A stretch of DNA of 64,000 bases. Source: Candidatus Kerfeldbacteria bacterium. Lineage in GTDB: Bacteria > Patescibacteriota > Patescibacteriia > SBBC01. The notes under the pieces are model-generated. The model saw only the letters and a list, made by a program, of their open reading frames with translations. It searched no databases and was not told the origin of the DNA. Shown piece after piece: positions 6,794 to 53,641 of this stretch. A program made the position numbers and the translations under genes. The stretch covers positions 79,461-143,460 of the forward strand of contig JAZDNT010000003.1 of NCBI GenBank assembly GCA_043799405.1. Direction: 5' to 3'. The stretch's first letter is position 1. Each line of letters opens with the position of its first letter.

Positions 6794-6822
6794 CCCGAGA
6801 GCAGTCCTCGATATACAAGAAA

Positions 6823-6851
6823 GCCCGCCTTACGGCGGGTCTCTCTTTTTT
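6823..6851. terminator. bidirectional intrinsic terminator between thrS and the DUF378 gene
   Basis: GC-rich stem gcccgcc/ggcgggt with loop ttac, followed by ctctctttttt. The complement is also followed by a T-rich run. Confidence 0.65.
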
Positions 6852-6860
6852 GTATTGGGA

Positions 6861-7685: not shown

Positions 7686-10489
7686 GGTTTCCTGGTTTTC
7701 GTCACTGTTTGTGTATCGTTCCTGACCGGAAGCCAGAACGAGAAGGTGCTCCCCTTTCTTTCGCCTGCGCTCTCGACCCATATGTGACCGCCGTGCCCCT
7801 CGACGATCGACTTCGCGATAAAGAGTCCGAGTCCCGATCCGTCCGGATGGAGCTGCGCAATGCCCTGTGCGCGGACGAACTTGCTGAACAGTTCGCGGAT
7901 GTCGCCCTTCTTTATGCCGATGCCGGTGTCCTTTACGCTCACGGTAACGCCTCCATCGTCTTCCTCGGCGGTTACAGTGACCGAACCTTTTGCCGTATAC
8001 TTGATCGCATTGTCGATAAGGTTCAGGAGCACGTCCTGCATCTTGTCGTCATCAATGAACAGTTCTGGTAGCGCTTTCTTCGGTTGTATGAACGCGAGCT
8101 TCAGCTTTTTATCCTCGGCAGCTTTGCGGAGCTCGCGCACTTCGCGTTCGATGAGGTCCTCTATGTGCACCGAGCGCTTCATGATCGCGAACTTCCCCGC
8201 TTCGATCTTGCTCACGTTCAGGAATAGGTTGATGAGACGTATCATCCGCTGCGATTCGTCGAGCAGAGAACGCAGGATATCGAGGTGTTTCGGCTCGATC
8301 TTCCCGAAGTCTCCCTCGACGAGCATCGAGAGGTACCCCATGATGCCGGTCATCGGCGTCCGGAGCTGATGCGAGGCGATGGAAACGAACTCTGATTTCG
8401 CCTGATCGAGGACCTGGAGGTGCTTGTTCGCCTCCTCGAGCTTCTGGTTCGTCTGCTGGATCTGGCTGAAGAGCTTGAGGTTGCGGCTGACAATGCCGAG
8501 CTGGTCCGCCATCGACTTGATCGTCTCGATCTCGTGCTCGCTGATCTCCTCCTGCTTGCGGCGCGCGGCGACCTCGATCGCGCCGATCGCCCTCCCCTCG
8601 GACATGATAGGCACGACGATGAACGTCTTTACCCTCATGAGTTTTTGCATACCGTCGGCGAGCATTTTCGGAACCGGGGGCGATATGACCTCGGCGAAAC
8701 TTTCTGAAAAACGTATCTGACCATTACGGACGACCTCGTGTGCAAGATTTTTATTCACCGTATCGTCGATCCGTGTGACGAACGAGGAAAACGGTTTCGG
8801 CAGCATCTTCATCACCTTTGCCGTGAGCGGCGTGTTTGTGATAGCACGCGCACGGAGCGTTATGCCATCGTCGTCGAGGAAAACGAGGATCGCACCGACG
8901 AACCCGAGCTCCATCGCGACCGAGTCAGCGATGTGCTGGCTCACCTTGTTGAAATCGAGCGTCTGCGTCATGTCCGTCGTGATCTTCTGCAGCGTTACGA
9001 GCGAGACGTTGCGTTCCCGCAGCTCTTCGGTCGCCTCCTGCACTTTGATCTTAAGGTTTTCCCCGAACTTCCTAACCTGCTCGAAGAGCTTTGCTTTCTG
9101 GATAGCGGATCCGAGCTGCGGAGAGAGCACCTCGATGAGCTGCAGGTCCTCGTCAGAAAACGAATCCCCGGAGAGTTTCGGACCTAAAGCAATGATGGCG
9201 TTCAGCTTATCCTGCGCGAATACCGGAGCAACAAGCGCTGCGCCGAGCCGTTCGATTTCCGTTTTTGAATCTTCGAGGGGTTTTCGCTTTTCTTCAGGAG
9301 TATCCTCGATCTTCCGTTCAAGAGATTCGATAAGAGAGGCGTGTTTCTTTTTCCGTAAGTATTGAACGAGCGGACTGTCACTAGTGAGTGTAAATGGCTT
9401 AGCGTCGCTTCCGCCTTTTGAAAAATCTGCAATAAACTTATCTTCACCAGTAAACGCCTCCAAAAGGAGAATTGAACTCGACTTGAGCTTCAGTTCCTGC
9501 GAAAGCGTCATCTGAAGGCGCTCAGTAAGGACATTTAGGTCAAGCTCGGTATTCACGATCTCAGAGAGTTTTCTGAGCGTTTCCTGATAGTTGATCTTCG
9601 CTTTGAAAAAGACCCTGTCTGTAGCAAGGGAGAGAACGCGCTTTAACGGATCAAGTCCGAAAACAATGAGAGCTGCAACGATCACTGAAATAATGGCGCG
9701 ACCACCACTAGTATCACCAAACAGTTGCCCCGAAAAGAACGTTATAAAAACGAAGGAAAGCGTTACAAGAGCGAGAAGGATACCATAAACTAGGGAACGA
9801 GTGATGATAAGACGAATGTCAAGGAGGCGATGACGTACTATGGCATAAGTAGTGCTTCCTATTAATATAAGAACGGAAGGAGGACCCCAAATCCCACCTT
9901 CTGAATAATTTAGGATGACAAAGATAATATTAGTAACGACGGTGAATAATGCTGTCAGAAGAACGCCCCAAAAAACGTACCTTATCTGAAGTTTTCTCAA
10001 TCCATCCGACTTTCGGTATGTCTTTTTAAGATTATTTAGCCCCATTGATAAATACACGACCAGAAAAAACAATAGGAAATAATATAAGGGTCCTGGTGTT
10101 ACGTCGGCTCCGTAGTTCTGAACAGTTAACTTCGCGACGTTATAGGTAGTCGGGGCAAAAACTAAAAAAAGAAGTGGCAAAATATACATTATTGATTCTT
10201 TCCATGAGAATTCTGTTTTTTCTTTATCTGGAAAAACAGTGGAAAAATATAGGAACAACGACGGAACTAAAAATGGACCTACAATGGCCATCTTGCTCCA
10301 AAAAAGTACAACACTATAACTATGTATATGATCGGCAACGAGAAGACAGATAATCCAAAATGCAAGGGAGAAAATAAGCAGTGCAAATGAAATATTGACA
10401 GCTTTTTTCCTTTTGTTCCATAAAATGAGCAACCCTAATATTACTGTTACAATTAGACTTGGAACATACGTAAAATAGGTATTAACCAT
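7682..10489 (-). CDS. sensor histidine kinase with N-terminal multi-TM (HisKA_7TM-like) sensor and GAF-like regions
   Basis: 935 aa. About 7 N-terminal TM helices, an H-box (FVSIASHQLRTPMTGIMGY) and HATPase_c motifs (NLIDNAIKYT, DTGIGI, GSGLGL). Confidence 0.9.
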   Translation of the reverse strand: MVNTYFTYVPSLIVTVILGLLILWNKRKKAVNISFALLIFSLAFWIICLLVADHIHSYSVVLFWSKMAIVGPFLVPSLFLYFSTVFPDKEKTEFSWKESIMYILPLLFLVFAPTTYNVAKLTVQNYGADVTPGPLYYFLLFFLVVYLSMGLNNLKKTYRKSDGLRKLQIRYVFWGVLLTALFTVVTNIIFVILNYSEGGIWGPPSVLILIGSTTYAIVRHRLLDIRLIITRSLVYGILLALVTLSFVFITFFSGQLFGDTSGGRAIISVIVAALIVFGLDPLKRVLSLATDRVFFKAKINYQETLRKLSEIVNTELDLNVLTERLQMTLSQELKLKSSSILLLEAFTGEDKFIADFSKGGSDAKPFTLTSDSPLVQYLRKKKHASLIESLERKIEDTPEEKRKPLEDSKTEIERLGAALVAPVFAQDKLNAIIALGPKLSGDSFSDEDLQLIEVLSPQLGSAIQKAKLFEQVRKFGENLKIKVQEATEELRERNVSLVTLQKITTDMTQTLDFNKVSQHIADSVAMELGFVGAILVFLDDDGITLRARAITNTPLTAKVMKMLPKPFSSFVTRIDDTVNKNLAHEVVRNGQIRFSESFAEVISPPVPKMLADGMQKLMRVKTFIVVPIMSEGRAIGAIEVAARRKQEEISEHEIETIKSMADQLGIVSRNLKLFSQIQQTNQKLEEANKHLQVLDQAKSEFVSIASHQLRTPMTGIMGYLSMLVEGDFGKIEPKHLDILRSLLDESQRMIRLINLFLNVSKIEAGKFAIMKRSVHIEDLIEREVRELRKAAEDKKLKLAFIQPKKALPELFIDDDKMQDVLLNLIDNAIKYTAKGSVTVTAEEDDGGVTVSVKDTGIGIKKGDIRELFSKFVRAQGIAQLHPDGSGLGLFIAKSIVEGHGGHIWVESAGERKGSTFSFWLPVRNDTQTVTKTRKP

Positions 10490-10497
10490 AAGCGTAG

Positions 10498-11058
10498 TTA
10501 GAAGTAGATGCTATCAGCATTATTGAGAATATTATTTTTACCAATGGATTCTAGAACTCTTCGTGCTCTTTCTTCAACCTGTCTGTAGCGTCCTGGCAGT
10601 ATAGTAATTAATTTCTCCCTAATAAAAGGGACGCCTCTATTACTATTTTTTCGTATATCTGATGGGTTTATCGTTATTTTCCCTAGTCTAGCTAAATGCC
10701 ATATTGCAATTAATAGAGAGCAGGGCACAAACTTCCTGGTATTGATATACCGCTTATACTCTTTTTGTAGTCTCCTAGACATCATATCAATAACCATATC
10801 ACTGTATTGAACTAAGCTACTTTCAAAAACAACAAAATCGGGCTCTACTCCATTTTGGTTTAAAGTCTGTAAAAAGTTTTCTACTGATAGAGTCTTCTCA
10901 ACTGGATTATAATCATCGATTAATACACAGGCCGTGTAGTCAATTTTTTTCAAATTTAAAGTGTCGATGACTCCTTTTGCAACTCTCATGCTCTCAAGTT
11001 TTTCAGAATCGATCTTTTCGTCGAGATATATATGTGTGTATTCAATATTCATGGTCAT
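10498..11058 (-). CDS. hypothetical protein
   Basis: 186-aa AT-rich ORF, divergent from the next gene. I recognise no motif. Confidence 0.55.
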   Translation of the reverse strand: MTMNIEYTHIYLDEKIDSEKLESMRVAKGVIDTLNLKKIDYTACVLIDDYNPVEKTLSVENFLQTLNQNGVEPDFVVFESSLVQYSDMVIDMMSRRLQKEYKRYINTRKFVPCSLLIAIWHLARLGKITINPSDIRKNSNRGVPFIREKLITILPGRYRQVEERARRVLESIGKNNILNNADSIYF

Positions 11059-11100
11059 ACGCCATTTGAATTCATGTTGTATTCATTATACAATATATTC

Positions 11101-11871
11101 ATGATGTCGCGCGAAGTAATACAAGACAGAAACAAACTTCTAGATTTTTTCCAAAAAGCTACTTTTTGGGACGAATTCGGGAATTCTTATCAAAATTTTC
11201 CTTGGGGTGAGTATTTGTATTGCCCAAAATGCAAATCTTTCGATGACTATGGTCCAAAAAACTCGTACGGATTTACCTGGTTCCAAGAAAAAAATACTAT
11301 GGATTGCCCAATTTGTAGCAGTAGGATGGAAAAATTTTGGTCTTACAATAGAATTTGGCATTATTTCGAGATTCAAACGAATTTTTTTTCTAAACAATTC
11401 TTATTGGTCGCAGCTAAAAAAAACGACAAATATATAGGATTGATCTTCGGAACGTATATTGAAAAAAGGGACATTCCGGATCTCACCGCTTGGTTCAATA
11501 ACAATAAGGTAACAAGGGCATTTTATATTGACCTAATTTTTATCTCTGCTTCCTTCCGACGAAGTAAAGGCATTAAAAACATTATTTCCGCGACGTTAAT
11601 TTTTGTAAAAATGATTTTTTCTCCACTCAAGTTTTCAATTTATGACCGACTTATCCAACTGCTCGGTAATCCAGTAATCTTTTATATATTTACGGAATTA
11701 ATAGAACAGTGTAAACAAAAAGGTGTTTTCGTTCTTATTTCGAGGACTCACAAAGTAGCAAAAAATGTTAAATTCATATTTCGAATAACAGGTTTTAGAC
11801 ATACAGATATTAGTAGCAAAGATGATAACGCAAGAGAGTATTTCTATACTAACTTGTCAAAAAATGCCTAG
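11101..11871 (+). CDS. hypothetical protein with zinc-ribbon and GNAT-like acyltransferase core (tentative)
   Basis: 256 aa from ATG 11101; the ORF opens at 11032, so the start is uncertain. CPKCKS...CPICSS zinc ribbon. GNAT-like strand-helix FYIDLIFISASFRRSKGI. Confidence 0.5.
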   Translation: MMSREVIQDRNKLLDFFQKATFWDEFGNSYQNFPWGEYLYCPKCKSFDDYGPKNSYGFTWFQEKNTMDCPICSSRMEKFWSYNRIWHYFEIQTNFFSKQFLLVAAKKNDKYIGLIFGTYIEKRDIPDLTAWFNNNKVTRAFYIDLIFISASFRRSKGIKNIISATLIFVKMIFSPLKFSIYDRLIQLLGNPVIFYIFTELIEQCKQKGVFVLISRTHKVAKNVKFIFRITGFRHTDISSKDDNAREYFYTNLSKNA

Positions 11872-12337
11872 AAAAAAATATCCCGGAACGGTATATTACA
11901 ACCCAAGACGCTACAAACAAAAGGTCACTTGCAATGGTCAGAAATAATCCACGTGGGCGATCTTTAATAAACCCTCTAATAAAAATTACAGTTACCAGTG
12001 GGCCAAAAATTATTGAGGAAATAAAATAAGCAAAAACGCTACTTATCCGCTTTGTTTTTGAAAGTAGTTTTGGCATTCTCTTTTCTTTCTCAGAATACCA
12101 CGTCCAAAGAACTTCGTTTAAAAAGAATAATTGGCCTGACTTATTTTTTTCACTTCTATTGGCCAAACAAAACAGGTAAATAGTTGGGATTAGAAATAAT
12201 AGAAAAGAAGCGAACATTGCCGTTAAGAAATACCGAAAAAAATAGCTTGAAATAAATAACACAGATTCAGTCAACAATAGCGTAATTAATGAAAAAAGGG
12301 TTGTACTTAATATCATTTTAAAACGTTCACGTGTCAT
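11849..12337 (-). CDS. multi-pass membrane protein
   Basis: 162 aa with about 4 hydrophobic helices. Its start overlaps the upstream methyltransferase stop (12334-12337). Confidence 0.6.
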   Translation of the reverse strand: MTRERFKMILSTTLFSLITLLLTESVLFISSYFFRYFLTAMFASFLLFLIPTIYLFCLANRSEKNKSGQLFFLNEVLWTWYSEKEKRMPKLLSKTKRISSVFAYFISSIIFGPLVTVIFIRGFIKDRPRGLFLTIASDLLFVASWVVIYRSGIFFSRHFLTS

Positions 12338-13047
12338 GAAGTTTTTATCGCACGACTAATGATATTCTGCCCCGCATAACTCTTCATATTAAATTTCGGA
12401 AAAAACCCGTAGTTTTTCAACAATCCAACATGATCGAGATGAGAATTAATATGGGGATTTTGTTTTACAAATAAATCTATAACAATATTGTAGTATAGGA
12501 ATTTTAAAAGTGATAATAATTGTTTTGTTTCTTTAACGAATGTACCGAGTATTCCAAATTTATTCAGATCGTATCTTAGGGCAGAAATATATATTCTCCT
12601 TTTTTTGAAATTATCCACCGGATCGGATATAACAAGAATGCCGCCACTTTTTAGAACACGGTGCAATTCTCTTAATATATCTCCTCGTTTTTCTATTACG
12701 ACTGAGTATAATACATTGTTTAATACAATTTTATCAAAACTTTCATTAGAAAACGGTAACTTCTTCGTAAGGTCGCCTATGATTCCTTTCTGATCACCAA
12801 CTTTCGTATTGTATATTTGAATTGCTGCGACATTGTTATCAATCCCTATACATTTTGCTCCTCTTTTTTTCATTTCTATAGAAAGGTTTCCGGTTCCGCA
12901 TCCTGCGTCCAAAATTGTTTCATTTGGAATAATATTCAAACAAGAACAGACATCAACAAGTAACTGTCTATATGGTTGAATACCATTCAGTACATCGTAA
13001 ACTTGAAAGTAATTCCTCCAAAAATTATTATCTAGCTTTCGATCCAT
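12334..13047 (-). CDS. class I SAM-dependent methyltransferase
   Basis: 237 aa. Motif I ILDAGCGTGNLS, IGIDNN, and DKIVLNNVLY...GGILVISD. Confidence 0.85.
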   Translation of the reverse strand: MDRKLDNNFWRNYFQVYDVLNGIQPYRQLLVDVCSCLNIIPNETILDAGCGTGNLSIEMKKRGAKCIGIDNNVAAIQIYNTKVGDQKGIIGDLTKKLPFSNESFDKIVLNNVLYSVVIEKRGDILRELHRVLKSGGILVISDPVDNFKKRRIYISALRYDLNKFGILGTFVKETKQLLSLLKFLYYNIVIDLFVKQNPHINSHLDHVGLLKNYGFFPKFNMKSYAGQNIISRAIKTS

Positions 13048-13093
13048 TAGATTTTTATTTCTTGAACATTATGTACATCATTACGTCCAACAA

Positions 13094-13119
13094 ACAAGGG
13101 GTTCGAATATTACCCCTGT
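13094..13119 (-). terminator. intrinsic terminator after the 7TM gene pair
   Basis: The minus strand reads ACAGGGGTAATATTCGAACCCCTTGT followed by TTGTTTGTT. Confidence 0.5.
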
Positions 13120-13154
13120 TCGAAAACTGTATCAAATGACGGTTTAACCATTTT

Positions 13155-13835
13155 CTACCTCCTTCTCCTCACCACATACGTAATCGCCCCCAACCAAATC
13201 ACTGTAGCAAGATTCGCCCATAATGTGTTGATATATAATGTTGGAAACGCTATAGGAATAATCAAATCAATCACTACAGCTGGTGCTCCGCCGAATACAA
13301 TTGACCAAAAGAGTATGGAAACGTTGGCTCTGATCACACCATCTAATTTATTTCTCCTGTAGTACAGTACAACCAAACCTGCGAGATAGGGAAGACAAAG
13401 AAAGATGTTATACGTATTATACACCGGACCTGGAATGATGATCCCTGATATTGTTGAAGAACCGGTAAATCCTTCAACTATCGCTTTTGAACTAAGAGAG
13501 ATGGCTGAAAAAATCCCCGTAGGTATATACAGTAAAATGACATGAAAAGCATCCACACGGAACAGTGGCGAAGGAAATACGAGGATAAGGTGTAAGAGTG
13601 CAGTCATTAACAGAATCCCAAAGACAAAAACTAATTTCATAAAAAGTATTGTCAGCGTTGTTTCTCCAACATACGACGTAGCAGCGGTTAACACCACCCA
13701 CATCCCCGTCGAAAAAGTCAACAGCACCATGACCTTACGAGTGGTGTTTCCACTCCTTGTAATCCAAAAGTATACAGCTAGAATTAACTCCCCTACACCG
13801 ATAAGATACGTCGCTGTTAGAAGGAAAGTTTTCAT
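13155..13835 (-). CDS. stand-alone 7TM membrane protein resembling histidine-kinase N-terminal 7TM sensor domains
   Basis: 226 aa from ATG 13835, which forms an ATGA overlap with the upstream stop. About 7 TM helices. Same helix pattern as the kinase N-terminus (LILAVYFWITR...). Confidence 0.6.
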   Translation of the reverse strand: MKTFLLTATYLIGVGELILAVYFWITRSGNTTRKVMVLLTFSTGMWVVLTAATSYVGETTLTILFMKLVFVFGILLMTALLHLILVFPSPLFRVDAFHVILLYIPTGIFSAISLSSKAIVEGFTGSSTISGIIIPGPVYNTYNIFLCLPYLAGLVVLYYRRNKLDGVIRANVSILFWSIVFGGAPAVVIDLIIPIAFPTLYINTLWANLATVIWLGAITYVVRRRR

Positions 13836-14491
13836 TTCTTTGCCACCAAAATATAACTCGTCATTCCAAGCCACGCCGAAGTCATCACTGAACCAACGTA
13901 CCCAAAAATATTCACAGTCACAAGCGGAAGAACGACATCAAAAAAGATGGAAAAGAGAAGTGAAACTAGTATCCCGAAAAGTATTAACCTAAGATTCTTC
14001 CTGATTATTCCATCAGATTTTTTAAATGTGCGAAAAAGATTTACTAATGACCATATCCAGTAGAAAACTAGCACCACGTTCATGAACCAAAAAAGTTGTC
14101 CTGGCTGTGTCATGTATCCAGGGGTAAATCGCGTTATTCCACGACCTACAATGAATGCATCACTAAAAATAAGTCCTGTACTAAATATTACCGCTGGCCA
14201 AACTGCCCACGGTACTTGTTCTCGAAAATTCCTTTGCGGGAATGGAAAGGATGTGCTAAACGGTAAAAACATTGCTGTCGCAATCATTCCACCGAGCCAA
14301 CTCATCTCCTCTGCATTATTAAATACATGAGATATAAATCCCATACCATTAGAGCCCACGTAAATTGCACTGCCAAAACAAAACAATCCAAACCAAAACG
14401 TCGACTGCTGGTTCTTATAACGGGTAAGGAAGAATACGCCGAGGATTAATTCGACGAGTGAAAGCGTGAGAAGGATGTAGCCGATTACCAT
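13832..14491 (-). CDS. stand-alone 7TM membrane protein, paralog-like to 13155-13835
   Basis: 219 aa from ATG 14491; the ORF opens at TTG 14545. LILGVFFLTRYKNQQSTFWFGLF..., about 7 TM helices. Confidence 0.6.
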   Translation of the reverse strand: MVIGYILLTLSLVELILGVFFLTRYKNQQSTFWFGLFCFGSAIYVGSNGMGFISHVFNNAEEMSWLGGMIATAMFLPFSTSFPFPQRNFREQVPWAVWPAVIFSTGLIFSDAFIVGRGITRFTPGYMTQPGQLFWFMNVVLVFYWIWSLVNLFRTFKKSDGIIRKNLRLILFGILVSLLFSIFFDVVLPLVTVNIFGYVGSVMTSAWLGMTSYILVAKK

Positions 14492-28333: not shown

Positions 28334-28492
28334 AATTCTCCTTTTCCGGCGGAGCCGGATCCGGCTTTGCCGGACGTGGTGCGAACCTCCGCTTGCGCCC
28401 CTACGGAGCTACAGCGGACAAGCTCACCTGAAGCTTGTCTGCCGAAGCTCAAAAGAGCAAAGGCAGAGTCCCACAAAATTAATAATTGCTGT
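28334..28492 (-). promoter_or_regulatory. structured 159-nt leader upstream of rplA (candidate r-protein autoregulatory leader)
   Basis: Minus-strand hairpins: TCTGCC..GCTCttttGAGC..GGCAGA; GACAAGCTtcaggtgAGCTTGTC; CCGGCaaaGCCGG; CCGGCtccGCCGG. These are followed by AAGGAG and the ATG. Confidence 0.4.
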
Positions 28493-29631: not shown

Positions 29632-31842
29632 TCATAATCCCCGCCAACCAGATGATGGCGTGCATACCATCAACCAAGATTCAAAGACTGTCATCCGTCC
29701 ATATTCAGACGCTTCGTCACAATCACCATCTATGGGCATGGTGGTGGTGGGGATTTGAATGTAACCATCTGCTACCTGTAGTCTGCTCTTAGGATTGGTG
29801 GTATTGATACCAACATTACCGTCGTTGCCAATGGTCATCCAAAAGGCTCCGCCATCATATGACCGGAAATTTATCTTCCCCGCAGGATTCCCGCTCGTTG
29901 TATTCCAAAAATTGAAATCTGTACCTCCATTACCATTCGTATCAGCAGAAATGTGTGGATTCCAATTCCCAAATGCTAAAGCACCAGTATTTTGCGGAAT
30001 AATCAGCTTTTCGATCCGCGCCCAGCCAGCTACGTCCAAAAAATATTGCGGGTCGGTAGTGTTGATTCCAATACCTGATCCGTTTTGGTAAAGACCGGAG
30101 TTCTGGATCGATGTGCTGCCGTTAAATCTGGAAATATACCCATAGGTTGTGCCTCCGGTTCCACTGCCGCTGACTGAAGCTGGAAGAGTTGCGCACGAGA
30201 GAGAACTACCGACTCCACTCACATATTGACCAGCCGGGCAAGCTGCGGGAAACGTCGTCAGCCGCGGCCACGGCACGTTACCGCCAGTGAGAGTTCCGGC
30301 CCAGTTAACATCGCTTCCAAACGACGCCGCACCGGTGGCATTCATAGTCCCAGCCACGTCGAGCTTGGCTCCAGGGCTTGTCGTCCCAATGCCGACATTA
30401 CCGTTATCAAAAATCGAAGAGTTAGTAATTGTGGTGCCAGCAGTGAACTTTGCCAGGTAATTGTTTGTGCCGCTCCCCCCGATAAAAGTCGGTACTCCAG
30501 TCAATCGCGGCCACGGCACCGAACCTGCCAGCAACGACCCGCTCCATCCTACATCACCGTTGACATCGAGTTTATATGCCGGGCTCGTCGTCCCGATACC
30601 GACGTTGCCTGCCAAATAGTTTATTCCACTACCAGTTTGGTAAATACCATAAGTCCCCGCACTTGCTGTTTTTATATATAGCCCGTAGTTATGAATTCCG
30701 ACAGTAGCAGTGTTATCAAAATATCCTGCATAAGTATAACCGTATCCGCTTGGTACGCCTGCCGCAGTAGCCTCTCCTTTTACACCAATCGCCGTGCCAG
30801 CTCCATTTATTTCTGCCTGGTTCCCAATACCATATACACCAATACCTGGACCCCTGCCCGTATCATATACGATACCATTTGCTGTTCCTTTTACAGCAAC
30901 ATTTCCACCATAGCCGATATTGTGTGCGGCAGTTGCATCAATAGCAATAGTACTGACAGTATCATTGGCGCTCTGCTGAGTAACAACGAGACCCTTCAGT
31001 GTTGGTGATGCGCCAGTTGCTGCGCCGTTACTTCTGTTAATATATAATCCAATTGGTCTTGTTGAACTTAGATCATTAACTTCCAACATAGCACCAGGAT
31101 TCGTCGTCCCAATGCCGACGTTGCCACTGGGATCAATCCGCATGCGCTCGATCAAATTATTCGTCCGGAAGATCCAGGCGGAATCTTCAGAAACATCAAC
31201 GAATTCCAATCCTCTGGTCGTTGACATAATGATGTTTCGCTTTCCGGAGGGCCCTCCATTGATCAGATCGATCAAGGGCGAATTTCCTTGGCCGGTATTG
31301 CGAGGAGTGAGAACGATAGTGTTGGCACCGGTGCCGACTTCGGTCCCTCGGTTATCGTCCGCCTGTATGGACAGTTTGTTATTCGGCGCTGTTGTGCCAA
31401 TCCCGACGTTGCCATTGTCGAAAATTGAAGAGTTGCCAATGGTCGTGCCAGCAGTGAATCTTGCCAGGTAATTGCCTGTTCCGCTTCCGCCGATAAAAGT
31501 CGGTACTCCGGTCAGCCGTGCCCACGGTACTGCCCCAGCTAATAATGATCCGCTCCATCGAACATCGCCCACGACATCAAGCTTCGCCGCCGGCGTCACT
31601 GTGCCAATGCCGACGTTGTCAGTGATCGTGTCCAACTGAACGACTGACCCGAGTTTCAGCCAACCATAGGGATTACCACTGGCACCGGTATCTTCTGCAA
31701 GCATTTTCATTGGCATTGCAACAACTCGGGTAACGCCAATAAGAAAAAACACTGCATACACAACAATTACCACCATCCTTAATTGTCGGTGTGGATAAGT
31801 CCTGGGCTTTAAAGAAAAGCCTGAATCATTCGAATTTTCCAT
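29632..31842 (-). CDS. large membrane-anchored surface protein with phage tail-fibre-like NVGIGTT repeats
   Basis: 736 aa. N-terminal TM helix. At least 6 occurrences of GNVGIGTT(S/N/A)P..KL(D/S/E)V. Two about 65-aa modules (LLAG.VPW.RLTGVPTFIGGSGT.NYLA.FTAGTTI.NSSIFDNGNVGIGTT). Confidence 0.7.
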   Translation of the reverse strand: MENSNDSGFSLKPRTYPHRQLRMVVIVVYAVFFLIGVTRVVAMPMKMLAEDTGASGNPYGWLKLGSVVQLDTITDNVGIGTVTPAAKLDVVGDVRWSGSLLAGAVPWARLTGVPTFIGGSGTGNYLARFTAGTTIGNSSIFDNGNVGIGTTAPNNKLSIQADDNRGTEVGTGANTIVLTPRNTGQGNSPLIDLINGGPSGKRNIIMSTTRGLEFVDVSEDSAWIFRTNNLIERMRIDPSGNVGIGTTNPGAMLEVNDLSSTRPIGLYINRSNGAATGASPTLKGLVVTQQSANDTVSTIAIDATAAHNIGYGGNVAVKGTANGIVYDTGRGPGIGVYGIGNQAEINGAGTAIGVKGEATAAGVPSGYGYTYAGYFDNTATVGIHNYGLYIKTASAGTYGIYQTGSGINYLAGNVGIGTTSPAYKLDVNGDVGWSGSLLAGSVPWPRLTGVPTFIGGSGTNNYLAKFTAGTTITNSSIFDNGNVGIGTTSPGAKLDVAGTMNATGAASFGSDVNWAGTLTGGNVPWPRLTTFPAACPAGQYVSGVGSSLSCATLPASVSGSGTGGTTYGYISRFNGSTSIQNSGLYQNGSGIGINTTDPQYFLDVAGWARIEKLIIPQNTGALAFGNWNPHISADTNGNGGTDFNFWNTTSGNPAGKINFRSYDGGAFWMTIGNDGNVGINTTNPKSRLQVADGYIQIPTTTMPIDGDCDEASEYGRMTVFESWLMVCTPSSGWRGL
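30383..30575 (-). repeat. intragenic module repeat, copy 1
   Basis: An about 190-nt segment roughly 80% identical by eye to 31394-31586, at an offset of 1011 nt (337 codons). Confidence 0.7.
31394..31586 (-). repeat. intragenic module repeat, copy 2
   Basis: Partner of 30383-30575. Confidence 0.7.
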
Positions 31843-31876
31843 AGGATTGGGATCCTTTCAACCCAACCCTACCCCC

Positions 31877-32302
31877 CTACTCTTCCACGGTCAACCCCAT
31901 GTTCCGGGCAGTACCCTCAATGATACGCATGGCGCCTTCAATGTCCTTTGCATTGAGATCGGGCATTTTCTTCTCGGCGATCGCCTTTATCTGCGCTCTT
32001 GTAACCTTGCCGACCTTGTTCCGTAGCGGATCGCCGCTCCCCTTTTCGATACCGACCGCCTTTTTCAGAAGCTCCGCTGCTGGCGGCGTTTTCAGTATAA
32101 ATGTATAGGTCCGGTCTTCGAACACGGTCAGTTCGACCGGCGTTACTTCTCCCATACGATCCTTTGTCTTATCGTTGAACTGCTTTACGAACTGCGCGAT
32201 GTTAAGGCCATGCGGCCCGAGCGCGGTTCCGACCGGCGGAGCCGGAGTCGCCTGTCCGCCAGTTATCTGTAGCTTGATGACTGTCTTGATCTTCTTTGCC
32301 AT
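31877..32302 (-). CDS. rplK: 50S ribosomal protein L11
   Basis: 141 aa. [32 protein letters not shown]. Confidence 0.97.
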
Positions 32303-32319
32303 AGTGTGATTGGGAACAA

Positions 32320-32384
32320 TTGACTATTGACTTGTGACAATTGACTGCGGGTGAAATTGTCAAATGTCAAACGTCACATGTCAA
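32320..32384. repeat. heptad-periodic inverted array: 4x TTGAC then 4x GTCAA
   Basis: TTGACta TTGACtt GTGACaa TTGAC (32320-32345), a 13-nt spacer, then GTCAAat GTCAAac GTCACat GTCAA (32359-32384). The arms pair at 20 of 26 positions. Confidence 0.8.
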
Positions 32385-32394
32385 AAGTTAACTA

Positions 32395-32940
32395 TTAAAT
32401 TTTCTTAACCTGCAAAAAGTCCAGTTCAACCGGCGTCTCGCGGCCGAACATGGATACGAGCACCTTGATCTTGCCGCGGGCTTCGTCGAGTTCGCTGACC
32501 TTGCCCTCGAAGTCCTTGAACGGACCGTCGATGATGCGGACCGGGGAACCGACCTGTACGTCGATCTTGTACTTCGGCTCCTCGACGCCCATCCGCTTCT
32601 GCAACGCTTTGACCTCTTCATCGGAGATCGGCGTCGGCGTCGTACCAGAACCGACGAATCCAGTGACGTTCGGGGTATTTCGAACGACGTACCACGAGTC
32701 GTCCGTCACGATCATCTCGACCAGTACGTACCCGGGGAAGATCTTCTCGGTTACCACCTTGCGCTTGCCGTTCTTGATCCGGATCTTGTTCTCGGTCGGG
32801 ATCAGCACCATGAAGATCTTGTCCTCCATGTCCATCGACTCGATGCGCTGCCGGAGGTTACGCGAAACGTTCTCCTCATACCCGGAGTAGGTATGGAGCA
32901 CGTACCAGCGTCGTCCCTGTTGCTGTGTCTGCTTTGGCAT
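32395..32940 (-). CDS. nusG: transcription termination/antitermination factor NusG
   Basis: 181 aa. RRWYVLHTYSGYE. KOW motif VGSPVRIIDGPFKDFEGKV. Confidence 0.96.
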   Translation of the reverse strand: MPKQTQQQGRRWYVLHTYSGYEENVSRNLRQRIESMDMEDKIFMVLIPTENKIRIKNGKRKVVTEKIFPGYVLVEMIVTDDSWYVVRNTPNVTGFVGSGTTPTPISDEEVKALQKRMGVEEPKYKIDVQVGSPVRIIDGPFKDFEGKVSELDEARGKIKVLVSMFGRETPVELDFLQVKKI

Positions 32941-32946
32941 AGTGTA

Positions 32947-33135
32947 TTACCTGACGAGTATCTTCTCGATCCCGTAGTTCATAGCGAGATCGACGAGTCC
33001 GAGGAATACGGCAACGAAGAGGCTGATCGCCACGACCAAAACCGTATGGTTGACGGTCTGCTTTCGCGAAGGCCAGACGACCTTCCGAAGCTCATCCTTA
33101 GCTTCTCGTATGTAGGAAGAAATGCGGTTTGCCAT
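32947..33135 (-). CDS. secE: preprotein translocase subunit SecE
   Basis: 62 aa. VVWPSRKQTVNHTVLVVAISLFVAVFLGLVD. Confidence 0.9.
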   Translation of the reverse strand: MANRISSYIREAKDELRKVVWPSRKQTVNHTVLVVAISLFVAVFLGLVDLAMNYGIEKILVR

Positions 33136-39327: not shown

Positions 39328-39458
39328 GAGTCACCTCCGGTCTGGAACACAACAGCTCGCATCCCTCAAACATGAATGTGAAAGGACGCGACGTTCAAGA
39401 AAACCACGTGGTACTAGATCGTCGCTACCCTACACCCGGTTTTCCTCACTGTCAATTG

Positions 39459-39487
39459 TTGACGGTTCCCCAGCTTCTTGCTAGGGT
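39459..39487 (+). promoter_or_regulatory. candidate promoter TTGACG-17-TAGGGT with an overlapping palindrome
   Basis: The -35 element lies within GTCAA-TTG-TTGAC (39451-39463). Confidence 0.4.
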
Positions 39488-40942: not shown

Positions 40943-40957
40943 TCAGCGCCGTCCACC

Positions 40958-40992
40958 AAAAAACCCGCCCCGGGTCTTCGAAAGATCCGGGG
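40958..40992 (-). terminator. intrinsic terminator of the HAD hydrolase gene
   Basis: 11-bp stem (40968-40978 / 40982-40992), followed on the minus strand by GGGTTTTTTGG. Confidence 0.6.
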
Positions 40993-41008
40993 TGGAAACT
41001 GTTGCTCG

Positions 41009-43985: not shown

Positions 43986-44104
43986 CGGGACTTCTCGGCT
44001 TCGCCTCGAAGTGACAGTTATCTACAAGTCGTCACCTCGAGCAACCGCGAGAGGTCCCGACGATGTGCGTTTATGGACAATAACAGCAATCTCTAGAAGT
44101 CCCG
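43986..44104 (-). ncRNA. candidate structured RNA element (function unknown)
   Basis: Outer 10-bp stem CGGGACTTCT (43986-43995) / AGAAGTCCCG (44095-44104). Inner 11-bp hairpin 44005-44015 / 44031-44041. The inner hairpin is fully paired only on the minus strand, where a G-U pair replaces the A-C mismatch seen on the plus strand. Confidence 0.25.
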
Positions 44105-44190
44105 TTAATCAGCTCTTCGTGGTCTGATATTTCTTCAAGAGTTTGTTCAATTCCACTACAAGCGGCCTGTGCCAGTCGTCCACGAGTTGA

Positions 44191-44307
44191 TTACTTACCG
44201 CTTGCGAATAAATATATCAACACCAATATCGCCACAACAACATATATATAAAATAATTGGACAATTAGACCCTCATGCTTTGAGCGTGGTCCTTTAATTC
44301 CCTTCAT
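44191..44307 (-). CDS. possible 38-aa membrane peptide
   Basis: MKGIKGPRSKHEGLIVQLFYIYVVVAILVLIYLFASGK. The ATG lies 4 nt after the stop of the gyrB remnant. Below the ORF-track size cutoff. Confidence 0.3.
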   Translation of the reverse strand: MKGIKGPRSKHEGLIVQLFYIYVVVAILVLIYLFASGK

Positions 44308-44310
44308 TTC

Positions 44311-44449
44311 TTAAATATCCAAATTCTGCCCACTCTTCGCGTGTGTCGTGATGAAACGCTTGCACGGCGTGACCTCGGCACCCATAAGGATGCCGAAAAT
44401 CTCGTCAGCCTTGTCTGCGTCCTCGATCGTGACCTGCTTCATGATGCGG
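44311..44449 (-). pseudogene. displaced copy of the gyrB 3' end (45 codons plus stop)
   Basis: Reads [45 protein letters not shown]-stop, against true Gyr[46 protein letters not shown]-stop (45835-45973). About 117 of 139 nt are identical by hand alignment. Confidence 0.85.
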
Positions 44450-44467
44450 GACGCCGGCGCCAAGTAT

Positions 44468-45103
44468 CTACTTCGTAAATTTCAGGCTCTTGATGATCGA
44501 ATCAACCTGGGCCGAGTACGTGGCATATGCGGACTGGGGAGCCATGAACGTTACGCTGTAGTAATTTAATTTGCGGACGTAGGAAAAGACGCCAAAGGTA
44601 TAGGTGCTACCCTCCATGGTGCAGGTCACGACCGCCCGACCGCCGATATAACCACCGATGGTTTTTTTAAAAGCCCGGTCAAGAACACAGGTAGCAGTGG
44701 GAAACTGTGTCTGTAAACTGGTCAGGAGTAGCTGGCCATAATCCTTGGGGTGCTTCAGTAAGGTATGACTAGCGGTGTCGGCCTGTTTTTGGGTCTTGTA
44801 CTTTGTCACGGCAAACAGCCATTCAACGCTTGTGTTGTCGGCTGGCTGGGCCGCAAAAAGTATACCTGCTGGAGGAGTTAACTTTACCCACCCCGTTGGC
44901 AAGGTCAGCGTAAACCCGTTCTTTTTACTGGTGTACGATTTACCCTGAATGCTGACGGTCCCGGCCTGAGAGTGGAGCTGGCTGATAATCGGCTGTAGCG
45001 TCTTTACCAGCTGATCGGTAGGACTAGAAGACGCTGAAGCGATCTGTCCGGGCAACAGAAGTGCCGCGGCGATTATCGCACTGAGCACTGCGTATTTTGG
45101 CAT
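44468..45103 (-). CDS. secreted hypothetical protein (DcrB/PsbP-like pattern, tentative)
   Basis: 211 aa from ATG 45103; the ORF opens at TTG 45136. Signal peptide MPKYAVLSAIIAAALLLPGQIASA. FTLTLPTGWVKL. Confidence 0.6.
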   Translation of the reverse strand: MPKYAVLSAIIAAALLLPGQIASASSSPTDQLVKTLQPIISQLHSQAGTVSIQGKSYTSKKNGFTLTLPTGWVKLTPPAGILFAAQPADNTSVEWLFAVTKYKTQKQADTASHTLLKHPKDYGQLLLTSLQTQFPTATCVLDRAFKKTIGGYIGGRAVVTCTMEGSTYTFGVFSYVRKLNYYSVTFMAPQSAYATYSAQVDSIIKSLKFTK

Positions 45104-45167
45104 ATTGTTCTGGTTAAATAATGAGCTTGTGGACAAACTGACAATCTAATCGTACCACTACAAGCAA

Positions 45168-45224
45168 TTAAATAATATCCTCCTTTTCGAGTTCTTTTAA
45201 ACGTTTATCGAGATCGGGGTTCAT
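45168..45224 (-). pseudogene. 18-codon fragment paralogous to the N-terminus of 43408-43608
   Basis: Reads MNPDLDKRLKELEKEDII-stop, against MDPDLDKRLAELEKKVDEM... Confidence 0.55.
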
Positions 45225-45225
45225 T

Positions 45226-45702
45226 TTATTTAAATATTTGGAAAACTATTACACCAAGTGCAATTGAACTCAGAAAAAATGAAATGCCTTGAATTATAAA
45301 AAACAAAGTTGATGATTTTCTTGGAACCTTATCTTCACCCTGATGTTTGTCAACTATTTTCTTAAGTGAACCTAAATCTTGTATAGATTCATCGTTATAA
45401 AACTCATCCATTGTATCAATTTTTGCGTTTGCCCAAGTATTAATAAAATTATACTCAATGAATAATTGAATAATTCCACATAATATTGAAATACCAAATC
45501 CTATCCAATCATAAATCAATGAATGTTTAAGTGAAACGCTTGGATTTTTTTGAAGCAAAAAAGCTGATGCAGTAAGAAACACAGTAGAAACTACAATCAC
45601 TTGGGTTATTACTTCCCTAAATGTCGAATTCGCCGCTTCAGTGAAGCGATATATTTCCTTTCTAAGTAAATCGATGTTATTGTTTCGAAAGTCTCCAGTC
45701 AT
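45226..45702 (-). CDS. membrane protein (AT-rich)
   Basis: 158 aa with about 3-4 TM helices. Very low GC. Confidence 0.55.
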   Translation of the reverse strand: MTGDFRNNNIDLLRKEIYRFTEAANSTFREVITQVIVVSTVFLTASAFLLQKNPSVSLKHSLIYDWIGFGISILCGIIQLFIEYNFINTWANAKIDTMDEFYNDESIQDLGSLKKIVDKHQGEDKVPRKSSTLFFIIQGISFFLSSIALGVIVFQIFK

Positions 45703-45833
45703 TTTTTATTCTTATCCTCTTCCTGATTAGGCTCTTTTGTTGGATATGTTGGAACAGCAACTCCCTTTTCAATTTTAACACTCGGATCATTTTGCTTTTG
45801 ATCCGGTTCATTTTCCTTATCTTGATCGTACAT
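45699..45833 (-). CDS. small acidic/lysine-rich peptide
   Basis: 44 aa from ATG 45833, which lies 1 nt after the gyrB stop. ATGA overlap with the next gene. Low complexity. Confidence 0.35.
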   Translation of the reverse strand: MYDQDKENEPDQKQNDPSVKIEKGVAVPTYPTKEPNQEEDKNKK

Positions 45834-45834
45834 A

Positions 45835-47901
<2,067 letters not shown>

Positions 47902-53084: not shown

Positions 53085-53105
53085 TAGACGCTTAGTAAAA
53101 ATCAA

Positions 53106-53134
53106 AGAGCGGCCACGAGGCCGCTCTTCGTTTC
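53106..53134. terminator. bidirectional intrinsic terminator
   Basis: AGAGCGGCC acga GGCCGCTCT followed by TCGTTTC. It sits between convergent genes. Confidence 0.65.
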
Positions 53135-53152
53135 ATCCTCTTATTTCATACA

Positions 53153-53641
53153 TCACCGTCTGACCGAATATAGATCACCGACGTCGACAGGATGATCAGG
53201 GAAGCTGCCGCTGACGCATTCGAGCACCTTCTCCTTAATGACGTTTGGTTGCAACTTGAGCGTCGGTACCGTATCCAGCGGTACCCACATCGGTTCGTAC
53301 GTCCCGCGCTCTTTCCTGCGTTCAGGTTCGTTCTCCTCAGCCTGCGCAGGCAATGTGACGGGAACCTTGGGCGTCTCGACGAGAAAGTAGTGCTGAATCT
53401 TTCCTTGTGGCGTCGACCCGAACATGACCTCTCTCCCGACCGTGACGTGAAGACCGGTTTCCTCGTACAGTTCACGGTATATCGTATCTACCGGTTGTTC
53501 TCCTTCATGCATTCCGCCTCCGGGAAAGACATAGTACTCGCCGTAGCGGGGATGAACGCGCCTAATTACTAAAAGGTGGCTGTCGGCAATGGCAATGCAG
53601 CCAGCGCGATCTCGATACCGTTGTTCGGGAAGCGCATCCAT
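53153..53641 (-). CDS. NUDIX hydrolase
   Basis: 162 aa from ATG 53641. Nudix box GGGMHEGEQPVDTIYRELYEETGL. Confidence 0.9.
   Translation of the reverse strand: MDALPEQRYRDRAGCIAIADSHLLVIRRVHPRYGEYYVFPGGGMHEGEQPVDTIYRELYEETGLHVTVGREVMFGSTPQGKIQHYFLVETPKVPVTLPAQAEENEPERRKERGTYEPMWVPLDTVPTLKLQPNVIKEKVLECVSGSFPDHPVDVGDLYSVRR

Follow-up and report, generated by a model that had tools for sequence, protein, structure and literature searches.

Heptanucleotides have been reported as the most abundant class of long simple sequence repeats (SSRs) in most prokaryotic genomes, and polymerase slippage has been proposed as their origin (PMC4679880, PMC4692102); a survey of the class by Mrazek et al. 2007 is cited in both PMC4692102 and PMC4679880. 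Such heptamer repeats vary between close relatives at one and the same gene pair and may occur as inverted pairs (PMC4692102), while arrays of TAACTGA have been described directly upstream of start codons devoid of a Shine-Dalgarno (SD) sequence, those of ribosomal protein (r-protein) operons included (PMC4679880). In the literature covered, no function of heptanucleotide SSRs has been established experimentally. The present analysis concerns two imperfect heptanucleotide tandem arrays, inverted relative to each other and with TGAC/GTCA as the core, located between nusG and rplK (the gene of ribosomal protein L11) in a stretch of 64,000 nt, hereafter the window, from a metagenome-assembled genome (MAG) of Candidatus Kerfeldbacteria (Patescibacteria; 55% G+C). 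In the original prediction, a 7-nt period was regarded as unusual for a dimeric operator. This remark is not supported: heptanucleotide SSRs are reported to be abundant in prokaryotes (PMC4679880, PMC4692102), and a 7-bp heptad operator is known from the omega/ParB system of pSM19035 (PMC9499535).

Compared to the described systems, the window locus shows both likenesses and differences. The short tandemly repeated repetitive (STRR) sequences of the cyanobacteria Calothrix and Nostoc and the class surveyed by Mrazek et al., as far as the citing accounts describe them, likewise consist of intergenic tandem 7-nt units that are lineage-specific and far commoner than arrays of adjacent periods. 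However, on the same accounts STRR sequences form many long, near-perfect arrays built from a few genome-wide units, whereas here each arm has only four to five units, which are imperfect, and 64 kb or more contain no other such locus. The GGGAATC and GGGGA(T/C)T repeats of Xanthomonas and Nostoc are also intergenic, vary at the same gene pair and include some inverted stem-loop pairs; in contrast to the TGAC unit, which has no such potential, they are G-rich and have been studied as G-quadruplex formers (PMC4692102). The TAACTGA arrays of marine Beggiatoaceae end a few nt from SD-less starts, in r-protein operons too, and a translational role has been proposed for them. The difference lies in one unit being used at 169 sites genome-wide, nearly all of them direct and one inverted (PMC4679880), as opposed to the single site with two inverted arms in the window.

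Beyond the SSR class, the operator/parS of the pSM19035 omega (ParB) protein combines a 7-bp period with contiguous direct or inverted units, at least four in number, and the window arms reach this number (PMC9499535). Unlike it, the window site has another unit and a 13-nt gap, is chromosomal and intercistronic, and is accompanied neither by a cognate ribbon-helix-helix (RHH) gene among 48 small ORFs of the window nor by a second site in 103 kb of the clade. The L1-binding leader before rplK occupies the same genomic position and is also a small hairpin, with a consensus of a 6-12-bp stem and an internal bulge carrying a G-A pair and an unpaired A (PMC3616713). This bulge is missing from the window element, which, in addition, is not conserved in close relatives. 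The repetitive extragenic palindromic (REP) sequences and bacterial interspersed mosaic elements (BIME) of enterobacterial operons are imperfect palindromes between co-transcribed genes, vary between strains and form RNA stem-loops that affect mRNA decay. REP sequences are multi-copy with a conserved consensus, in contrast to the single-copy window element made of 7-nt repeats.

Inverted heptad arrays and predicted hairpin of the nusG-rplK spacer

The spacer covers positions 32303-32394 of the window (92 nt, about 33% G+C by our own count from the raw sequence), as re-measured from the list of open reading frames (ORFs) and the sequence. All genes of the locus are on the - strand: nusG (32395..32940, 181 aa, stop codon UAA at 32397..32395) is preceded by secE (33135..32947) and followed by rplK (31877..32302, 141 aa). 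The homologue search revealed a protein named NusG in a Candidatus Kerfeldbacteria MAG that is 100% identical to the window NusG; relatives of NusG carry the Pfam NusG/KOW domains, and relatives of L11 the Ribosomal_L11_N/L11 domains. In mRNA sense, the spacer begins with UAGUUAAC UUUUGAC AUGUGAC GUUUGAC AUUUGAC, continues through aauuucacccgca and ends with GUCAAUU GUCACAA GUCAAUA GUCAAUU guucccaaucacacu, followed by the AUG of rplK.

The coordinates of the arrays given in the original prediction proved correct in the sequence and in the output of Tandem Repeats Finder (TRF). On the + strand, pentamers of the TTGAC type start at 32320 (TTGAC), 32327 (TTGAC), 32334 (GTGAC) and 32341 (TTGAC); after a gap of 13 nt (32346-32358) they are followed by pentamers of the GTCAA type at 32359 (GTCAA), 32366 (GTCAA), 32373 (GTCAC) and 32380 (GTCAA), with a degenerate fifth unit, GTTAA, at 32387. 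Since the genes lie on the - strand, the TTGAC-type arm (32391..32359) is the 5' arm and the GTCAA-type arm (32345..32320) the 3' arm in the mRNA, an orientation that the + strand description had to be corrected for. The 5' arm (32359..32391, -) thus comprises five heptads (UUAAC-UU, UUGAC-AU, GUGAC-GU, UUGAC-AU, UUGAC) and the 3' arm (32320..32345, -) four (GUCAA-UU, GUCAC-AA, GUCAA-UA, GUCAA). TRF places the arrays at 32319-32346 and 32358-32385, each with period 7 and 4.0 copies, with 80% matches for the 5' arm and 71% for the 3' arm. Together they fill most of the spacer, as had been claimed, and the pairing of 20 of 26 positions between the arms was reproduced in our recount in the symmetric register, again from the raw sequence.

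The inverted heptad arrays are real and non-random. No other period-7 array was detected by TRF in the 64-kb window, and the pair is the longest inverted repeat in the window with arms at most 120 nt apart. Four KTGAC units phased at 7 nt were found twice, once per strand, at an expectation of 1.9e-6, and the lag-7 self-match of 17/21 was reached by 0.5% of dinucleotide shuffles. The element consists of tandem 7-nt units beyond chance, lies entirely inside the spacer and hence is intergenic, and varies in length, sequence and presence between close relatives. Its two inverted, imperfect tandem arrays are thus of the SSR type, like the heptamer repeats described from cyanobacteria, Xanthomonas and Beggiatoaceae. 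A connection of the array with the TTGAC/GTCAA inverted pair at 39451-39463 had also been suggested. The window holds 136 TTGAC sites on both strands, and chance alone would yield about 0.7 inverted pairs separated by 0-10 nt (our arithmetic); the pair at 39451-39463, a single 5+5 palindrome (GTCAAttgTTGAC), is at chance level, and a link to the array is not supported.

The RNA of the region is predicted to fold into a stem-loop of 27 bp at 32315..32396 (-), with five helices and a 20-nt loop (AAUUUCACCCGCA), a minimum free energy of -26.6 kcal/mol and a z-score of -5.55; not one of 200 shuffles was as stable. The helices are parted by 1x1 mismatches (A/C, U/U, A/A and U/U), and the stem starts at base two of the nusG stop codon, while 12 nt separate its end from the AUG of rplK. 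The most stable register, one heptad away from the symmetric one (-26.6 vs -19.5 kcal/mol), pairs the variant unit GUGAC with the variant unit GUCAC. Relative to shuffles, the mRNA sense folds better than either the antisense RNA (z -2.9) or the DNA strand of the same region (-14.6, z -3.6). Searches of Rfam at gathering and permissive thresholds returned no relevant match for the window, the spacer, 17 related loci or one related spacer. The lack of an SD sequence before rplK (start context cacACU-AUG), pointed out in the original prediction, is true but unremarkable, as nusG and most window genes likewise have none.

Variation of the spacer in close relatives and in other Patescibacteria

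An exact-protein look-up gave no record for the NusG or L11 of the window. Near relatives were reached by the homologue search, through proteins 94-98% identical to the window NusG; below, WIN denotes the window locus. Among genomes with 95-98% identical NusG, the spacers measure 92, 93, 74, 4, 4, 4, 4, 376 and 98 nt. A 93-nt spacer with TTGAC x4 / GTCAA x4 heptads (UUUGAC AUGUGAC AUUUGAC GUUUGAC ... GUCAAAU GUCAAUG AUCAAGC GUCAACA; -27.4 kcal/mol) is present in L208/L214 (86% nucleotide identity in nusG+rplK). The L201-205/L215 lineage has a 74-nt spacer with CCTGAC / GTCAGG units (UCCUGAC GAAUCAC ACCUGAC ... GUCAGGA GUCAGGU GUCACGA UUCAAGA; -25.2 kcal/mol). In L213 the 98-nt spacer is filled by unrelated G+C-rich hairpins. 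A further relative with 97% identical NusG has a 376-nt spacer (L211:1747-2122) in place of the 4-nt or hairpin spacer. In L206, L207, L209 and L212, with NusG 96-97% identical, there is only a 4-nt spacer, and these empty sites uniformly read UAA-NCNU-AUG.

The element is therefore homologous in three lineages, in which the inverted-heptad design and the hairpin potential have been kept. In the register of WIN, 77.6% of the cells pair across the three sequences, vs 26-37% with slid partners, and where the 5' arm has changed from UU to CC, the 3' arm shows the compensating AA to GG, which turns two adjacent U-A pairs into C-G. Between WIN and L208 the arms are identical at 44/56 positions, the four-fold degenerate sites of the flanking genes at 90/150 and the loop at 4/18, which would fit constraint or homogenisation of the arms only, the arm identity being inflated by the repeat structure; the loops of WIN, L208 and L201 are unrelated. 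Because four equally close relatives manage with a 4-nt spacer only, the element is dispensable and fast-evolving, not a conserved regulator of L11 synthesis. The distribution also conflicts with the nusG+rplK tree: L201 possesses the element, and its nearest neighbour L209, 95.8% identical in nusG+rplK DNA, does not. Neither the window nor 20.5 and 18.5 kb from two relatives, 103 kb of the clade in all, contains another heptad array, so within this range the reuse of a unit at many loci typical of STRR sequences and TAACTGA was not observed.

The wider comparison was based on the best 80 genome loci (L001-L080), all from Patescibacteria. Between nusG and rplK they have spacers of 0 to 2465 nt, with 27 of 77 not exceeding 20 nt, and a TTGAC array occurs in none of the nusG-rplK spacers of these loci. 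Many of the longer spacers nevertheless show the inverted heptad design with other units, for example GUAUGGC/GCCAUAA in L075, GGUAGGC/UCCUACA in L039, UUAGUUAA/CUAAUCAA in L025, GCUGAUA/AUCAGCG in L031, or NNAUAAU x5 followed by AUUAUNN x5 in L002; direct-only arrays are found in L077 (UUCUA x5), L048 (UUUGCAA x5) and L046. When arrays of five units with a self-match of at least 75% were counted in 82 kb of non-coding DNA from the 80 loci, period 7 gave 31 arrays and periods 5, 6, 8, 9, 10 and 11 gave 2, 0, 6, 1, 0 and 0. Non-coding DNA accounts for 31 of the 37 period-7 arrays in the related loci. An inverted partner lies within 250 nt of 19 of the 37, vs 6/37 in the reversed-sequence control, and 21 of the 37 abut a stop or start codon by our own count from the listed distances. 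The nusG-rplK spacers, which make up 14% of the non-coding DNA, hold about nine of the period-7 arrays, again by our count, a mild enrichment. The units are specific to lineage and locus, and separate spacers of one genome differ (L025, L052, L020).

At least 120 metagenome contigs, differing widely in G+C, contain the exact pattern of four phased KTGAC units. Among the matches listed, many metagenome contigs resemble cyanobacterial heptamer repeats, and inverted pairs like that of the window are present in L094, L116, L124, L132, L138, L089, L174 and L195. The lone metagenome match with nusG-rplK among them, L169, was rejected, as its array stands elsewhere in the contig and is unrelated. A separate observation concerns L125:810-837 (Ga0315276_10203371), where GTCAAAC GTCACAT GTCAAAT GTCAAAG (gene sense) bridges the junction from the stop of folD to the beginning of a 176-aa ORF; 20 bases of this array are identical to window 32366-32385, and the relatives of its FolD bear Candidatus/Patescibacteria names. 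The heptad-repeat habit is general in the non-coding DNA of Patescibacteria and is known in other phyla. No publication linking heptamer repeats with Patescibacteria was found in the literature searched, and such repeats are now seen in these streamlined genomes, inside an essential gene cluster.

A different structure characterizes many other nusG-rplK spacers of Patescibacteria, namely a conserved hairpin composed of an outer helix, an inner hairpin and a bulge of 6-8 nt on the 3' side ending in an invariant GCUUCU. It was observed in L011, L024 (4554-4594), L026 (4553-4590), L038, L039, L052, L057, L063, L064, L066, L074, L078, L080 and others, and its helix sequences are entirely different from one genome to the next. 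Of the 49 spacers of at least 30 nt, 26 contain GCTTCT, and the architecture accompanies 17 of 28 sense-strand occurrences, compared to 2 of 38 elsewhere in non-coding DNA and 36 of 396 within coding sequence. The hairpin corresponds to no Rfam family and does not match the L1-site consensus; its variable stems could not be placed by MAFFT. Two further ideas on the motif were rejected: a pseudoknot with the Lys-Lys codons of rplK, most motif-bearing loci having AAAAAA there, and a link with rplA, which was found in every locus with a spacer of 30 nt or more, whether the motif was there or not. The structure is a candidate new rplK leader motif that is absent from the window: the spacer at 32303-32394 contains no GCTTCT on either strand. 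In the whole window GCTTCT occurs 49 times vs 33.6 expected, a number reached by 0/100 shuffles, for which codon usage may be the cause. For annotation, the window spacer is not to be taken as a conserved L11 leader, the conserved element of other Patescibacteria being the GCUUCU-bulge hairpin.

Readings of the element

With moderate confidence, we read the element as an intercistronic RNA hairpin that derives from an SSR and whose role is modulatory at most. The suggestion of an RNA hairpin made in the original prediction is retained in so far as the strong mRNA-sense fold recurs in the homologous elements of two relatives; the more specific proposal of a conserved attenuator or processing site in the L11 leader is not supported in view of the relatives with a 4-nt spacer. 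Lack of spacer conservation in close relatives, together with no transcript ends or pauses mapping there, had been named beforehand as refuting the proposal, and the first of these two is what the comparison revealed. Under the hairpin reading, nusG and rplK would be co-transcribed, spacers of 0-10 nt in relatives pointing in this direction, and the arms would zip into a long imperfect stem-loop within the common transcript. The stem may leave the rplK start region only partly accessible until the ribosome finishing nusG opens the stem base, and opening by the terminating ribosome would maintain translational coupling. The 27-bp duplex could also be a target for mRNA processing or stabilisation. 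As for the origin, the repeats may have grown by replication slippage, while selection for pairing, or else copying templated by the hairpin, may have kept the arms complementary. The alleles found at this one site, namely the 4-nt spacer, the TTGAC hairpin and the CCTGAC hairpin, can be compared for their effect on coupling or processing.

Several results weigh against the hairpin reading. Folding in vivo, coupling and processing are all steps that we infer. The two compensated pairs in WIN, L208 and L201 are, with three sequences, not significant and cannot be told from shuffles. The 41 spacers of 40-240 nt in the wider set are strongly structured (mean z -2.9), but the sense strand is not more stable than the antisense (23 of 41 spacers, p 0.88), and thus an RNA-level reading is inseparable from a DNA-level one. 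Nor are nusG-rplK spacers more structured than other co-directional spacers (mean z -2.7 vs -2.5, p 0.81): in these genomes co-directional genes generally have hairpins between them, and the nusG-rplK site does not stand out in this respect. A 'zipper' idea, in which hairpins enclose extra spacer and keep stop and start adjacent, was tried and abandoned, the span being 0.635 vs 0.648 for shuffles. The array is not hypervariable on short time scales, because four contigs of the L201 lineage, each from another sequencing run, have exactly the same spacer. Moreover, since several lineages share the same 4-nt spacer, gain or recombination is a more plausible explanation than the element having been precisely lost several times.

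Among the alternatives, an autoregulatory leader bound by L1 or L11 and controlling rplK translation is close to refuted and has next to no probability. The relatives with a 4-nt spacer speak against it, the Rfam searches gave no match, and the stem contains symmetric 1x1 mismatches only, lacking both the bulge typical of the L1 site, with its G-A pair and unpaired A (PMC3616713), and the GCUUCU bulge of the other Patescibacteria spacers; rplA is situated 3.5 kb downstream with its own SD sequence and a structured 159-nt leader. The multimeric binding array raised in the original prediction would amount to a DNA-level system, with 7-bp heptads coated by RHH-type dimers, as by omega/ParB of pSM19035, in an operator or centromere-like site. 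Four heptads per arm are the minimum for full pSM19035 parS/omega activity, for which direct and inverted units both work (PMC9499535), and pairing cannot account for the direct-only arrays of L077, L048 and L046. This reading is nonetheless very unlikely: the 103 kb of the clade contain no second TGAC-heptad array, the Pfam scan of 48 small window ORFs revealed no member of the RHH, omega, MetJ, Arc or CopG families, the contiguity of the units is broken by the 13-nt gap, the unit shifts from TTGAC to CCTGAC between close relatives, and equally close relatives lack the element altogether. The differing units in separate spacers of one genome (L025, L052, L020) also argue against one sequence-specific binder. 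Punctuation of transcription, in which the hairpin terminates or attenuates the nusG transcript and the TTGACA units provide the -35 of an rplK promoter, would resemble the arrangement of E. coli, in which secE-nusG and rplKAJL form separate transcription units. TTGAC(A) is the -35 consensus, and a sigma-70-like match made of heptads, TTGACA-17-GACAAT (10/12 matches), is located inside the 5' arm at 32356..32384 (-). The match is probably incidental; the corresponding elements of L208 and L201 contain nothing promoter-like, and the 27 of 77 relatives with spacers of at most 20 nt have no room for a promoter or terminator. On the side of termination, the stem is A+T-rich with a 20-nt loop and is followed by CCCAAUCAC instead of a U-tract, the terminator scan indicated no terminator-like site in the spacer, and the canonical terminators of the window are short G+C-rich stems with T-tracts (for example 6794-6860, 40943-41008 and 53085-53191), so that the stem is not a terminator of the local kind. 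Punctuation is accordingly considered improbable.

The discordance between the element's distribution and the nusG+rplK tree (L201 vs L209) and the uniform TAA-NCNT-ATG of the empty sites are suggestive of a small non-autonomous mobile or recombining element with heptad terminal inverted repeats, which would have entered between the stop of nusG and the start of rplK, or passed from strain to strain via homologous recombination of the conserved flanks. The Patescibacteria-like contig L125, with its four GTCAA-type heptads after folD and 20 bases in common with 32366-32385, could be seen in the same light, but a match of 20 nt is within the reach of chance (about 0.3 expected by our estimate, the hits having been preselected for the KTGAC pattern). 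With no second copy in the 103 kb of the clade, no target-site duplication at the junctions, and hence neither a miniature inverted-repeat transposable element (MITE) nor a REP element recognizable, and with unrelated loops in WIN, L208 and L201 (4/18 for WIN vs L208), mobility is an improbable explanation. It is also conceivable, if unlikely, that the heptad arrays are not mutational debris but a functional, lineage-wide device of the intercistronic regions of Patescibacteria. Their units, which abut stop and start codons and are often inverted, would be recognized by a protein that binds nucleic acid periodically, such as S1, a cold-shock protein or one of the RHH type, or would serve as register-tolerant stems, and would set SD-independent initiation or coupling in r-protein operons. 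In that case, the TGAC hairpin would be one allele of a tunable element.

Other features of the window

Downstream of rplK, the window encodes a 736-aa protein (29632-31842, -) with internal repeats (GNVGIGTT.P..KL.V) and no Pfam match, positioned between rplK and a DUF5671 gene. A hairpin (UAGGGUUGGGUUGAAAGGAUCCCAAUCCUA, -12.9 to -16.2 kcal/mol) likewise takes up the 34-nt spacer between rplK and this gene (31843-31876, -) and ends precisely at the AUG. In L214 and L215 the 736-aa gene is missing, and rplK is followed directly by the DUF5671 gene and then by rplA. The rplA leader of the window (28334-28492, -; 159 nt) is G+C-rich and highly structured (-72.6 kcal/mol), with a clear AAGGAG SD sequence. 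An SD-like motif was found in only about 14 of 60 candidate window genes. The sequence 'cACU AUG' recurs directly before the SD-less starts at 32940, 32302, 35194, 36602 and 29479 (all -), and many relatives have ...ACU AUG or ...CCU AUG before rplK. Stretches of low G+C at 10001-14000 (0.34-0.36) and 44001-46000 (0.43), compared to about 0.55 for the genome, may be foreign islands. Finally, a 777-aa ORF contains a 198-nt unit repeated 2.1 times (88% identical) at 62164-62580.

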